From assembly GCF_003790525.1 (NCBI RefSeq), contig NZ_CP033635.1: a stretch of 64,000 bases of DNA; one strand, given 5' to 3'. The position numbers were made by a program, and so were the translations under genes. Within the stretch, counting starts at the first letter, position 1. Each line of letters opens with the position of its first letter. The notes under the pieces are model-generated. The model had not been told where the DNA came from, made no database searches, and saw only the letters and a program-made list of their open reading frames with translations. Source of the DNA: Escherichia coli. GTDB lineage: Bacteria > Pseudomonadota > Gammaproteobacteria > Enterobacterales > Enterobacteriaceae. This document shows positions 55,215 through 61,917 of this stretch, one piece after another.

Positions 55215-57185
55215 TCAGAACGTATACGCGATACCTGCCCAGAAATTGCGACCTTCTTCAATAAACCCTTCACTGTAGGCATATTTGGTATCAAACAGGT
55301 TATTGACCGACGCATTGACGCTGAAGCCATGACCTAAGGTGTAATCGGCTCGAATGTGGGTCACCGCAAAACCGGCGGCTTTTTGTGAACCGTCACTGTT
55401 GCTGTAGCTGGAGGAACGCGCCTCTTCCGACAGCGTTACGCTTAACGGCTCCCACGGTTTGAGAGTCATCCATGCGGTCATTGTCTGCGTTGGCAGATCG
55501 GTTATCTTGCCGATGTCTTTGCGTTTGGCGTCAGCGTGGATCAGGGCGTAGCTCAATCCTACATCCAGTATATTGCTGATTTTCCCCTTAATACCGGCAT
55601 CCAGACCGCTGTAATCCACCGTGCCGCTGTTCTGATTTTGAATGGTATCGGCATCGATATTGTGCGAGAGGATGGCATCACTCACCCGGTTATAGTAAAC
55701 GCTGACCTCAAACCCCCAGTCGTGCGTGAAGGCACCATTCCAGGTTAAATCCACCCCGCGCGCGCGTTCCGGTTTGAGCTGCGGGTTAACAATCGCTATC
55801 TGGTTATACGCAGGTTTGGACGTGGTATAGCGTTCTTTCAGCGTCGGAAAGCGTGTGCGGTCATAGTACGAAAGCGCCAGCGTGTCTTCATTGGCAAAGT
55901 GGTATTTCCCCATCACCTGCCAGTTAAAAGCTGACTGATTGTTGTCGTCATAATGGGTGATACTGCCATCTTTCTCATGTTTTTTCGCTTCTACGCTATC
56001 GCGCCAGTCATAGCTGATTCCAGCCACGACATCGACATTATCGGCAGCAGCCCATTGATATTCACTGGCGAGCGACCAGGTACGATCTTCATAGCGATCG
56101 TAAGCGGCGTGTGGCGCACCTTTTTCCCGGTGTACGTCATCTTTCCAGTTAACGGCAAACGACAGCAGATCGTTTTCACGCACATCGGCTGCCAGTTGTA
56201 ACCCGGCACCGTCGCTGTAATCGGAATAATGGCTGTAGCTGCCTTTTTTATTTTTCAAATCAGCCAGCGAGTTGTACATCATTAGCGTATTTTCAAAGGT
56301 GTCGCGATACAGCCGACTTTTCAGGGTAAAACGATCGTTTAGTTGGGTCGTTCCCTGATAATAAAAACTTTCTTTGTCATACTCTGGCCACTGCCAGTAG
56401 CGTGATTTTTGACCACTATTTCCACTGTATGGCGGGTTATCTTTTTCACCATCCTGCTTAATGTAAGTCAATGTGTATTCATCGTTTTCGCGTGGTGTAA
56501 AACCGAGCTTCACAATGCCGCGTTTATCATCAGCCGATGAATTAATCATCTTGCCGTGTTTGCCTGCAATATCATTATTTACACCATGCGGCAGGCCGAG
56601 AAAATCCTGCTTTAGCTGGCTACCGCTGACTTGCAAATACCCCAGATCGCTGCTGGCGGCAAATGAAGCATGCATATCGTAGGCATTGTCCTGGCTACGG
56701 CTCCATCCCTGGCGATATCCCAGATTTGCTTCCAGAGGTTTTGTTGGCTTCTGGGTGGTGATATTAATGGCTCCGCCCATCTGATTAGGCCCCTGAAGCA
56801 GCGACGAATACCCTTTGGAAACTTCAACTGCCCCCAAATTGTTGGTCAGAATCCGCGCCAGATCGAGGTTGCCGTCATAGGGAACATAAATGGGCACACC
56901 GTCGAAATAGACTGGCACCTGACGACTATCAAAGCCGCGAACTTTGACCTGTTCTTCGTTGCGGCTACCTGACTTTTGCAGCACCACGCCGGGGACGACA
57001 CTTAATGCCTGAGCGACATTCTGTTTATCCAGGGCCTTCATGGTGGGTTGATCGAGAACGGTGGTCGTCGTCGATGATACCGGACTGGACCATACGGTCA
57101 GCGTGTCACTCTCCTGAGCCGCTACGGCCTGCTGGGTAAAGGCAAGTGATAATGCTGTGCAGAGATAACGTTTTTTGAGTCTCAT
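55215..57185 (-). CDS. TonB-dependent outer-membrane receptor
   Basis: Signal peptide, TonB box DTLTVW, plug domain, and a C-terminus ending AGIAYTF. Confidence 0.9.
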   Translation of the reverse strand: MRLKKRYLCTALSLAFTQQAVAAQESDTLTVWSSPVSSTTTTVLDQPTMKALDKQNVAQALSVVPGVVLQKSGSRNEEQVKVRGFDSRQVPVYFDGVPIYVPYDGNLDLARILTNNLGAVEVSKGYSSLLQGPNQMGGAINITTQKPTKPLEANLGYRQGWSRSQDNAYDMHASFAASSDLGYLQVSGSQLKQDFLGLPHGVNNDIAGKHGKMINSSADDKRGIVKLGFTPRENDEYTLTYIKQDGEKDNPPYSGNSGQKSRYWQWPEYDKESFYYQGTTQLNDRFTLKSRLYRDTFENTLMMYNSLADLKNKKGSYSHYSDYSDGAGLQLAADVRENDLLSFAVNWKDDVHREKGAPHAAYDRYEDRTWSLASEYQWAAADNVDVVAGISYDWRDSVEAKKHEKDGSITHYDDNNQSAFNWQVMGKYHFANEDTLALSYYDRTRFPTLKERYTTSKPAYNQIAIVNPQLKPERARGVDLTWNGAFTHDWGFEVSVYYNRVSDAILSHNIDADTIQNQNSGTVDYSGLDAGIKGKISNILDVGLSYALIHADAKRKDIGKITDLPTQTMTAWMTLKPWEPLSVTLSEEARSSSYSNSDGSQKAAGFAVTHIRADYTLGHGFSVNASVNNLFDTKYAYSEGFIEEGRNFWAGIAYTF

Positions 57186-57210
57186 AGAATAAATTCCGTT
57201 TAACAAAGAA

Positions 57211-58065
57211 TTAAATAGAGACTGCGGGTTGCAGACTGACTTTAATGTCAGCTGGTGTCGCGTAATAAGGCGCGGAGGTAATAAAAAGGCGAATGCCGCA
57301 GTCGAGGTAATTTTTGAGTGTTGTCAGATTAATTCCGCCGGTCAGAGCCAGCGTGCAGTGAGGAGCCAGCGACGGTGCTATTTGCGCAATTTCAGTTGCC
57401 TGTTGCGGATTAAATTTGTCGAGCTGAAGTACGTCTGGTTGCGCGCGTAACGCGGCGATTGCCTCTTTCGGCGTGTCGGCTTCAACAACTATTTTCTTCT
57501 CGGGTGCGTGGCGACGTAACTGATTGATTGCGCCTGACCAGTCCTGATTGTCATGAAGAAAATGACGGTGGTTGGCAAACAATAATATGGTTTCCGCACA
57601 TCCGGCACGATGAATCAGTCCTCCGGCAGCCAGAATTGCCTGCGAGGCCAGTAAGCGGGTGCCCGGAATTGCTTTTCGGGTGCAGGCGATATTGCCATCA
57701 GGGTAACGTTCACGAAGTAACGCCAGCATTTGAGCGAGATAATCAGAAACACCGCAACTCCACTCCAGCACATTCTGGACTGCCTTCCATCCCTGATGAA
57801 GTGCTGCGGCATTACCTTGCGCACGGATTAGCCGCTGACCCGCGTTCGCTTGTGAACCGTCGCTGACCGCGTTATCAATAGTTAATCCCAGCGTAGTTAA
57901 CATCTTACACGCGACAGAAATTCCGCTGACGCAGCCGCCCTGACGGTGAAAAAACTCTATATAGCCATGCTGGTGTCCAATATTTAATGCTCGCGTGGTC
58001 AGGTCACCGCCCTGGATATCTTCCAGAAGTAACGCATCGATTTGTGCCTGAGAAAGGAAAATCAT
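57211..58065 (-). CDS. ModD-like protein (nicotinate-nucleotide pyrophosphorylase / type II PRTase fold)
   Basis: 284 aa. LLLEDIQGGDLTT at the N-terminus and an overall NadC/ModD-like pattern. Confidence 0.7.
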   Translation of the reverse strand: MIFLSQAQIDALLLEDIQGGDLTTRALNIGHQHGYIEFFHRQGGCVSGISVACKMLTTLGLTIDNAVSDGSQANAGQRLIRAQGNAAALHQGWKAVQNVLEWSCGVSDYLAQMLALLRERYPDGNIACTRKAIPGTRLLASQAILAAGGLIHRAGCAETILLFANHRHFLHDNQDWSGAINQLRRHAPEKKIVVEADTPKEAIAALRAQPDVLQLDKFNPQQATEIAQIAPSLAPHCTLALTGGINLTTLKNYLDCGIRLFITSAPYYATPADIKVSLQPAVSI

Positions 58066-58874
58066 CGCAGTGCCTCTTGCGGTACGCTATCCCACCAGAT
58101 GAGCGCCCAGTCGCGGCTGGCAGGGGCGAGGGCACGAGCATCTTGTTGTTGATACCAGTGATATAACCGCTCACGCTCATCGTCGTTAAGCGCGCCAAGA
58201 CTCCAGCTGACGTTCTGCTCAAAACGTTCCCAGGTGCTGTTATCCTGTTGGCAATTTTGTCCACGGATAAAATCAACGTGGGCATAAATTCCCATCTGAT
58301 ACAGGACGTTGAGCGCAAATATATAGTTGGGTAATTCGATCACTTCCCGACCAGCCGCCCGCTGAATGGCTGGAGAGACGAACGAGGTGCTGACCAGATG
58401 AGTCGTATAGACGCGAAGCCGTGCCTGATTATTCAGTTTGCTCATTGCCTGGCGCATATCAGCCACCAGAGTGGAGCGGGAAGCCACGGCAATATCGCAG
58501 CGTGGCAGGTCACTCCAGTCCTCTTCCCAGGCGCGCTGGATCCAGTGGACATTGTCTGCCTTTAGCGCGGCGGCGCGACGGGCGGCAACGTTCAGCATCC
58601 CCTGACTGTAATCAACGCCATAAATCGTCGTGAGTTTGTCAGCCAGCGCCAGCGATACGGTACCCGGTCCGCAGCCCATATCGAATAAGGTTTGTGCGCC
58701 TTGCAGATCAATTTTAGCGGTCAGTTGTTGCAGGTAGCTGTCCGTAGGCGAGGCGCAATTTTCCGCCATTTTTTCCGCCCGTTGATCCCAGTGATCCGGC
58801 GTTTTTTCTGTGCGATGGGCCAGCCTGAGTTGCTGAAGGTAAAGGTCTGCAAAATCAATATCATCAATGAGCAT
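58062..58874 (-). CDS. Class I SAM-dependent methyltransferase
   Basis: 270 aa. Motif I is LFDMGCGPGTVSLALA. There is an ATGA overlap with the downstream gene. Confidence 0.8.
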   Translation of the reverse strand: MLIDDIDFADLYLQQLRLAHRTEKTPDHWDQRAEKMAENCASPTDSYLQQLTAKIDLQGAQTLFDMGCGPGTVSLALADKLTTIYGVDYSQGMLNVAARRAAALKADNVHWIQRAWEEDWSDLPRCDIAVASRSTLVADMRQAMSKLNNQARLRVYTTHLVSTSFVSPAIQRAAGREVIELPNYIFALNVLYQMGIYAHVDFIRGQNCQQDNSTWERFEQNVSWSLGALNDDERERLYHWYQQQDARALAPASRDWALIWWDSVPQEALR

Positions 58875-61641: not shown

Positions 61642-61665
61642 AAGTAATATCCTGATAATTAAAAC

Positions 61666-61689
61666 CGCTATATACTTACACATATAGCG
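61666..61689. promoter_or_regulatory. 8-bp inverted repeat just upstream of the transport operon (operator candidate)
   Basis: CGCTATAT (61666-61673) / ATATAGCG (61682-61689), 25-48 nt upstream of the first ATG. Confidence 0.3.
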
Positions 61690-61917
61690 AAAAAGATCAT
61701 GTTTGATGTCAAAATTTGTCTAAAGAGACAGAATGATTTGCTTGTTTCTTAAATAACACTTTGTTCCACAAGAAAATTGTCAGGGAGAATGGGGAGTGGG
61801 GGAAAATATAAATAGAGGTGTAATGATTAACAAGTTGATAAAATAAAATTAAAATCTTCTCTAATAAAAGAAAATAAAGGCATAGACCGTAGAAAGAGTG
61901 GTATTTCGTGGTGAAGA

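Follow-up and report, generated by a model that had tools for sequence, protein, structure and literature searches.

What does an operon import when it joins an outer-membrane receptor, an ATP-binding cassette (ABC) importer and two cytoplasmic enzymes, and to which signal does it respond? Such an operon lies in a stretch of 64,000 nucleotides (nt) of the Escherichia coli contig NZ_CP033635.1, referred to below as the window, where the listing of open reading frames (ORFs) and the family scans place six co-directional genes on the minus strand at positions 55215–61641, between ymgE and treA. We consider it probable, at roughly 70%, that this operon is part of the ModE regulon and provides an accessory means of acquiring molybdenum (Mo) or tungsten (W). 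The features on which the argument draws, with lengths in amino acids (aa) or base pairs (bp), are as follows.

61707–61712, minus strand: predicted −35 hexamer of the operon promoter, TTGACA, a perfect consensus 17 nt before the CG of the ModE box
61664–61691, no strand assigned: ModE operator-like palindrome TTCGCTATATG-TGTAAG-TATATAGCGGT, matching the ModE consensus and conserved across genera
60619–61641, minus strand: periplasmic binding protein, 340 aa, with a twin-arginine signal peptide (Pfam Peripla_BP_2)
59639–60619, minus strand: FecCD-type (type II) ABC permease, MolB-like (Pfam FecCD, 299 bits)
58884–59642, minus strand: ABC ATPase, MolC-like, 252 aa, with a GTG start (Pfam ABC_tran; RefSeq start)
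58062–58874, minus strand: class I S-adenosylmethionine (SAM)-dependent methyltransferase, 270 aa, formerly "yc73" (Methyltransf_25/31/11/12)
57211–58065, minus strand: ModD, 284 aa, with a quinolinate phosphoribosyltransferase (QPRTase) fold, not NadC (TIGR01334)
55215–57185, minus strand: TonB-dependent outer-membrane receptor, "prrA", 656 aa, with Plug and barrel domains
55178–55207, no strand assigned: 11-bp hairpin, a probable bidirectional terminator between the receptor stop codon and the convergent ymgE

An earlier note on this DNA, made from the letters alone, had mentioned in passing an 8-bp inverted repeat at 61666–61689 ahead of the operon. The repeat is indeed there; its passing importance did not stand, since it forms part of a conserved ModE-type operator, the palindrome TTCGCTATATG-TGTAAG-TATATAGCGGT read on the coding strand from 61691 to 61664. 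The E. coli ModE consensus is ATCGnTATATA-N6-TATATAnCGAT (as quoted by Rodionov et al., 2004), and sites were scored by the number of matches to its 20 specified positions. The operon palindrome scores 17/20, and two K-12 sites known from experiment, the modA operator (CGTTATATtgtcgcctACATAACG, 43 nt before the modA ATG) and the site upstream of moaA, score 16 each. Within the window the palindrome is the sole site to reach at least 16, and the same score was attained by none of 1220 shuffled upstream regions. Among 61 orthologous regions upstream of the binding-protein gene, 54 contain a site scoring at least 16.

To see where such boxes occur, 1.56 Mb of sequence from 81 loci was surveyed. 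Every box scoring at least 16 in this survey adjoins genes of the cluster, and three positions were found in all: (i) just before the first transporter gene, (ii) in the spacer between ModD and the receptor gene where this spacer is 70–370 nt long, as in Proteus, Morganella, Providencia, Pectobacterium and Serratia, and (iii) just before ModD, or before the methyltransferase–ModD pair, where no transporter is attached. In these genera and in Moellerella, the boxes in ModD–receptor spacers of 100–370 nt score 17–19/20 (e.g., 10943–10970 in locus L032 and 10923–10950 in locus L065), and their placement marks them as a second predicted operator, for the receptor gene; the E. coli spacer measures 25 nt and contains no box. 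Because all boxes of at least 16 in the 1.56 Mb stand before cluster genes, the comparison identifies the operator as a phylogenetic footprint and not a chance palindrome. We infer from these matches that ModE binds at the palindrome. The modE gene itself is not in the window; in K-12 it is b0761. Control of the operon by ModE, and its link to molybdenum, appear highly probable to us.

The six genes constitute one translationally coupled uptake operon, as evidenced by their junctions. The binding-protein and permease genes meet at TAATG, the permease and ATPase genes overlap at GTGA, and the methyltransferase and ModD genes overlap at ATGA; a gap of 9 nt separates the ATPase gene from the methyltransferase gene, and one of 25 nt separates ModD from the receptor gene. 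The ORFs, family scans and junctions thus bear out the earlier description of a single coupled operon of six minus-strand genes with these domains. RefSeq annotation of the identical locus in the ST131 strain EC958 gives the same six genes with the same shorter starts. The longest ORF of the ATPase gene (to 59780) runs 138 nt upstream into the permease gene (59643–59780, minus strand); we rejected this start as over-extended, and the RefSeq GTG at 59642, with its GTGA overlap, is the plausible start.

The island is accessory relative to K-12. In MG1655, ycgY alone lies between ymgE and treA, just as the earlier note had stated. Of 5426 complete E. coli genomes, 2139 have the whole island at this location, ST131 and O157:H7 included, which makes good the note's belief that O157 and other E. 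coli carry the cluster. Among the full-length matches listed, identity is 97.7–100%. To sample conservation beyond the species, a genome collection was scanned with a ModD alignment, yielding 80 species-level loci. The same six genes in the same order are present in 55 of these, at amino-acid identities down to ~40–45%, in Escherichia, Citrobacter, Klebsiella/Raoultella, Serratia, Pantoea, Erwinia, Pectobacterium, Proteus, Morganella, Providencia and Moellerella. Edwardsiella and Leminorella have the methyltransferase and ModD alone. In Phytobacter, Oligella and Treponema, ModD lies beside ModA/ModB/ModC-type molybdate transporter genes, accompanied in Oligella by a TOBE (Mop) protein.

Some loci deviate from these arrangements. 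On an 8.3 kb contig of a Casimicrobiaceae metagenome-assembled genome (L064), the order is ModD, two tandem binding proteins, permease, ATPase and methyltransferase; ModE-like boxes (16/20) stand before ModD and after the methyltransferase, and there is no receptor on this short contig. Shewanella mangrovi (L083, 9001–9807) has a lone methyltransferase that is 64% identical, with neither ModD nor a ModE box at the locus. Other Shewanella species possess both the methyltransferase and the binding protein.

The transport proteins also bear on the cargo. The best solved relative of the permease is Haemophilus influenzae MolB (HI1471) at 222 bits, followed by FhuB (175), HmuU (168) and BtuC (146), and the best importer match of the ATPase in the Protein Data Bank (PDB) is H. 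influenzae MolC (HI1470) at 126.5 bits. Judged by these scores, the nearest counterpart of the ABC core is the molybdate/tungstate importer MolBC of Haemophilus. The binding protein begins with MSLTRRRF, and its signal peptide (MSLTRRRFTQIL, 61621–61641, minus strand) has a twin arginine shared without exception by 17 orthologues, which suggests export via the twin-arginine translocation (Tat) pathway. Its AlphaFold2 (AF2) model has a predicted local distance difference test (pLDDT) score of 85. The best structural match to this model is 4PAG, a structure of unknown ligand (template modelling (TM) score 0.78–0.81). Among structural neighbors whose ligand is known, H. influenzae MolA (3PSA; TM 0.68–0.70, 20% identity) comes first, ahead of YiuA, BhuT and BtuF. 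The modeled likeness to MolA is supportive but not decisive. We find it likely that the cargo contains Mo or W. The earlier suggestion of a siderophore, a corrinoid or a pyridine precursor as the substrate finds no support in the ModE-type operator or the MolBC-like ABC core.

The receptor matches PF07715 (Plug) and PF00593 (barrel) above cutoff, and its signal peptide is followed by a TonB box, DTLTVWS. It falls below the cutoffs of all NCBIfam subfamilies: the siderophore model gives 127 against a cutoff of 223.5, hemin 125 against 317, and B12 79 against 600. Similarly, BtuB models score 70–79 bits where their cutoffs are 600–836, the copper subfamily cutoff is not reached, and the scores of CirA, FepA and FecA are far under cutoff. 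Our search for a close solved relative of the receptor found none.

ModD matches TIGR01334 at 500.7 bits (cutoff 178.85), with residues 2–278 aligned to the 277-position model, and scores 136.1 bits with the nadC model TIGR00078, under its cutoff of 198.4. It resembles NadC in fold and in most of the ligand-binding residues; in an alignment to the Mycobacterium tuberculosis QPRTase, the T-R-K, H-R, E, D and GG elements are kept. The differences fall at other positions. The Lys of LIKDNH, reportedly the catalytic Lys172 (Sharma et al., 1998), is replaced by an invariant Phe163 and the neighboring Asp is an Ala, and Lys94 occupies the position of Arg105 of the M. tuberculosis enzyme, a residue taken to be catalytic as well. 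Unlike NadC, ModD is also predicted to be co-regulated with molybdenum genes and not with NAD genes. Because of the score below the NadC cutoff, the Phe in place of the LIKDNH Lys and the Lys in place of Arg105, ModD is predicted to be an unlikely quinolinate phosphoribosyltransferase; it may bind another anion.

For the methyltransferase, no NCBIfam model was matched at cutoff, and a PDB sequence search was likewise without a match. The AF2 model is confident (pLDDT 91), but Foldseek retrieved generic small-molecule methyltransferases alone, at a TM score of ~0.55, and the attempt to read a substrate from the structure was given up. Where the methyltransferase occurs in related loci, its gene lies directly upstream of ModD and usually overlaps it. 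In Edwardsiella the two form a stand-alone unit that has no transporter or receptor and is preceded by its own ModE-type box, scoring 15–18/20 (loci L025, L044, L052 and L085). One E. tarda protein (P0231) is a fusion of an ABC ATPase and the methyltransferase, probably the remnant of a decayed operon. Given that Edwardsiella has the pair behind a ModE box with no transporter attached, and that ModD is found with ordinary ModABC in other genomes, the two enzymes seem linked to molybdenum status itself and not to one particular imported ligand.

These arrangements bear directly on an alternative which retains ModE control and takes the cargo to be an organic complex of Mo or W, the ligand of which would be processed by ModD and the methyltransferase after import. 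Candidates would be a catecholate-type "molybdophore" from other microbes, or a molybdopterin/Moco-like compound. A TonB receptor combined with a type II (BtuCD/FecCD-class) importer is typical of chelate and cofactor uptake, and two cytoplasmic enzymes of a small-molecule type are translationally coupled inside the operon. Moreover, the affinity of MolA for free molybdate is oddly weak (~100 µM), and the binding protein of the operon resembles 4PAG more than MolA. However, the Edwardsiella methyltransferase–ModD unit has a ModE box and no transporter, ModD alone is found beside ordinary ModABC oxyanion transporters, and no genes for the biosynthesis or export of a chelator lie nearby. The same stand-alone unit and the association of ModD alone with ModABC weaken the proposal, made in the earlier note, that the enzymes modify the imported compound on entry. 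We regard an organic complex as a rather unlikely cargo.

The direction of control was considered from the geometry of the promoter. In 53 of 54 orthologous upstream regions, a TTGA[CT]N hexamer precedes the CG of the box at a set spacing, which is 17–18 nt in 26 loci and 24–26 nt in another 26. In the E. coli operon the hexamer is a perfect TTGACA (61712–61707), 17 nt before the CG, and the end of the box is 22 nt from the ATG of the binding-protein gene. Since a −35-like hexamer lies upstream at fixed spacing, the box is predicted to cover the −10/start region or to follow the −10 directly. At moaA, where ModE activates, the ModE site is 201 nt before the ATG. The operon thus has the modA-type repressor arrangement, unlike the upstream activator position at moaA, and by this analogy we infer that molybdate-ModE represses it and that it is induced under molybdenum starvation. 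A sigma-70 scan gave sites no more numerous than expected by chance and missed the conserved promoter; its sole match in the leader, at 61833–61805, is far upstream.

The opposite sign of regulation would require that ModE activates the operon, so that ample molybdate would turn it on; it could serve, for example, as a low-affinity bulk importer like Haemophilus MolBC-A or as a module for the detoxification or handling of oxyanions. ModE does activate moaA from a site that scores 16, MolBC-A works at high external molybdate, and the SAM-dependent methyltransferases TehB and ArsM detoxify oxyanions. Yet the box is downstream of the conserved −35 and only 22 nt from the start codon, compared with 201 nt at moaA; Haemophilus molB is repressed by molybdate, not induced; and an energy-costly TonB receptor would make little sense when its substrate is abundant. 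Activation is, in our judgment, very unlikely.

Other regulators were sought in the leader and in its orthologues. At the Rfam gathering level, a scan of the window returned C0299 alone, and in 61500–62100 no riboswitch, cobalamin and Moco types included, was seen even at E ≤ 10, where all matches were noise. Consensus scores for Fur and Zur boxes in the 61 orthologous upstream regions are indistinguishable from those of shuffles; the best Fur match in the window is 13/19, and the distribution of Fur scores over the 61 regions barely differs from that of shuffles. The earlier observation that the leader has no convincing Fur box and no cobalamin riboswitch was therefore upheld by Fur scores like those of shuffles and an empty Rfam scan of the leader; the Zur control and the Moco riboswitch that it had proposed looking for there were not found. 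As far as these scans reach, the ModE-type box is the sole conserved regulatory element.

The gene set is not new, and the impression of an unrecognized cluster had to be abandoned: the locus has been named prrA-modD-yc73-fepC since 1998–2001. The cluster of that name in uropathogenic, avian and O157 E. coli is the same locus and is treated in the literature as a putative iron-uptake marker. A 2026 comparative paper describes the 6.4 kb prrA-modD-yc73-fepC cluster as "possibly mediating iron uptake", crediting Ye and Xu (2001); prrA-modD-yc73-fepC is likewise a 6.4 kb region in strain BEN2908, an extraintestinal pathogenic E. coli (ExPEC). A 2007 paper on O157 identifies Sakai ECs1693–1699 (S-loop#83/OI#55) as the cluster reported by Guyer et al. 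(1998). The literature searched contained no functional study of prrA-modD-yc73-fepC and reported no substrate, regulator or phenotype, in keeping with the earlier remark that no substrate has been assigned. Nor did it mention a ModE link, a relationship to MolBC or TonB-dependent uptake of Mo or W, with older papers and regulon databases incompletely covered, and we found no case in it of ModE being tied to any TonB receptor. A "modD" in a paper on Tat substrates was set aside as an apparent typographical error for mdoD.

That the operon is an iron uptake system for a siderophore or haem, with a palindrome unrelated to its function, is extremely unlikely: the RefSeq name of the binding protein is "iron ABC transporter substrate-binding protein", papers on ExPEC and O157 call the cluster a putative iron-uptake system, and the best NCBIfam matches of the receptor, all sub-threshold, are siderophore and haem receptor subfamilies, but no Fur box rises above shuffles in the 61 orthologous upstream regions, the receptor misses the siderophore, haem and B12 cutoffs by a wide margin, the only conserved regulatory element is a ModE-type box, and the iron label is a homology-based naming from 1998–2001 for which no functional test is reported in the searched literature.

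We return to the reading of the operon as a ModE-regulated system for Mo or W acquisition. In its most specific form, which we put forward tentatively, the operon would be a ModE-repressed, high-affinity system for scavenging Mo and the first recognizable TonB-dependent route for Mo or W across the outer membrane. The mechanism proposed for the reading as a whole is as follows. When cytoplasmic molybdate is ample, molybdate-ModE would bind at 61664–61691, overlapping the −10/start region, and transcription would be blocked as at modABC. When molybdate is scarce, the six genes would be transcribed as a single coupled message. The receptor would pull a Mo or W species across the outer membrane, either free molybdate or tungstate or a small complex of these, and the Tat-exported binding protein would pass this species to the MolBC-like type II ABC importer. 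In the cytoplasm, ModD and the coupled methyltransferase would assist in handling the metal, as an accessory pair under ModE control.

Several points weigh against this scheme. MolBC-A itself has low affinity, so homology to it does not predict high-affinity scavenging, and the binding protein shares only ~20% identity with MolA, being nearer to 4PAG. Where a TonB receptor works with a type II importer, the cargo is usually a bulky chelate; the substrate may therefore be something other than free molybdate. In the literature the cluster goes under iron uptake. Some promoters are activated by ModE, and the −10 hexamer in E. coli, CGCTAT at a spacing of 17 nt, is a weak one in a promoter that is itself predicted from sequence; ModE binding, the response to molybdenum and transport are predictions of the same kind. 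Both enzymes are left unexplained, and our confidence in any specific role for ModD or the methyltransferase is low.

The operon was also compared with characterized systems. In H. influenzae, HI1469–HI1475 is the secondary molybdenum transporter locus, with modA, molCBA and modD-salX-cysU; MolBC-A is a low-affinity molybdate transporter, and molybdate represses molB, reportedly by way of a factor that was not identified. The E. coli operon is like MolBC-A (HI1470–HI1472) in having a type II FecCD-class permease and ATPase, of which the Haemophilus proteins are the nearest solved relatives, a binding protein of the Peripla_BP_2 class, and an adjoining modD (HI1473 is next to molA; in E. coli the gene is within the operon). 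The repression of MolBC-A by molybdate is what the operator would predict for the E. coli operon. Unlike the operon, the Haemophilus locus as listed is without a TonB receptor and a methyltransferase, and has additional ModA/ModB/ModC-like genes. With ModABC of E. coli, the operon shares the same palindromic operator, a CG-to-ATG distance of 43–48 nt, and presumably repression by molybdate-ModE. ModABC differs from the operon in being a type I importer, in using a binding protein of the ModA class and in lacking an outer-membrane receptor; nor does K-12 have a ModD-family gene alongside modABC. By analogy, the operon can be described as a hybrid of ModE-repressed ModABC and MolBC-A/ModD, to which an energized receptor and a coupled methyltransferase are added.

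TonB-dependent receptors for metals other than iron include ZnuD for zinc, OprC/NosA for copper and FrpB4 for nickel. The prrA receptor is like these in concept, being an energized receptor under a predicted non-iron metal regulator, with no sequence relationship established. In the literature searched, we came across no characterized TonB receptor under molybdenum control. To our knowledge, the passage of molybdate over the outer membrane at nanomolar levels is essentially unstudied.

Molybdoenzymes, among them nitrate, DMSO/TMAO and formate oxidoreductases, drive blooms of Enterobacterales in the inflamed gut and support urinary-tract infection. If our reading is correct, Mo scavenging would be a property of ~40% of E. 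coli, including ST131, other ExPEC and O157, and of Proteus, Morganella, Providencia, Citrobacter, Serratia and Pectobacterium, and the scavenged Mo would feed molybdoenzyme-dependent respiration in the inflamed gut and the urinary tract. An "iron" marker set in use for decades in the typing of ExPEC and O157 would turn out to be molybdenum-regulated, and a new metal would be added to TonB-dependent nutrition. The recurrence of modD beside molybdate transporters would likewise be explained. Further, a ModE-controlled ModD–methyltransferase pair would provide a handle on the function of ModD and, in the most specific form of the reading, would make up a cytoplasmic step of Mo handling not known before.

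A few minor observations concern the surroundings of the operon. The hairpin at 55178–55207 begins 8 nt past the TGA stop codon of the receptor gene and has a predicted RNA folding energy of −21.2 kcal/mol, with a z-score of −2.9 relative to shuffles. The C0299 match is to a small RNA (sRNA) and lies at 38970–39048 on the plus strand, scoring 106.7 bits at the Rfam gathering level. At the other end of the operon, a spacer of ~260 nt (61713–61970), AT-rich by eye, separates the treA stop codon from the operon −35 and contains promoter-like hexamer pairs on both strands, at 61827–61855 (plus strand) and 61833–61805 (minus strand).

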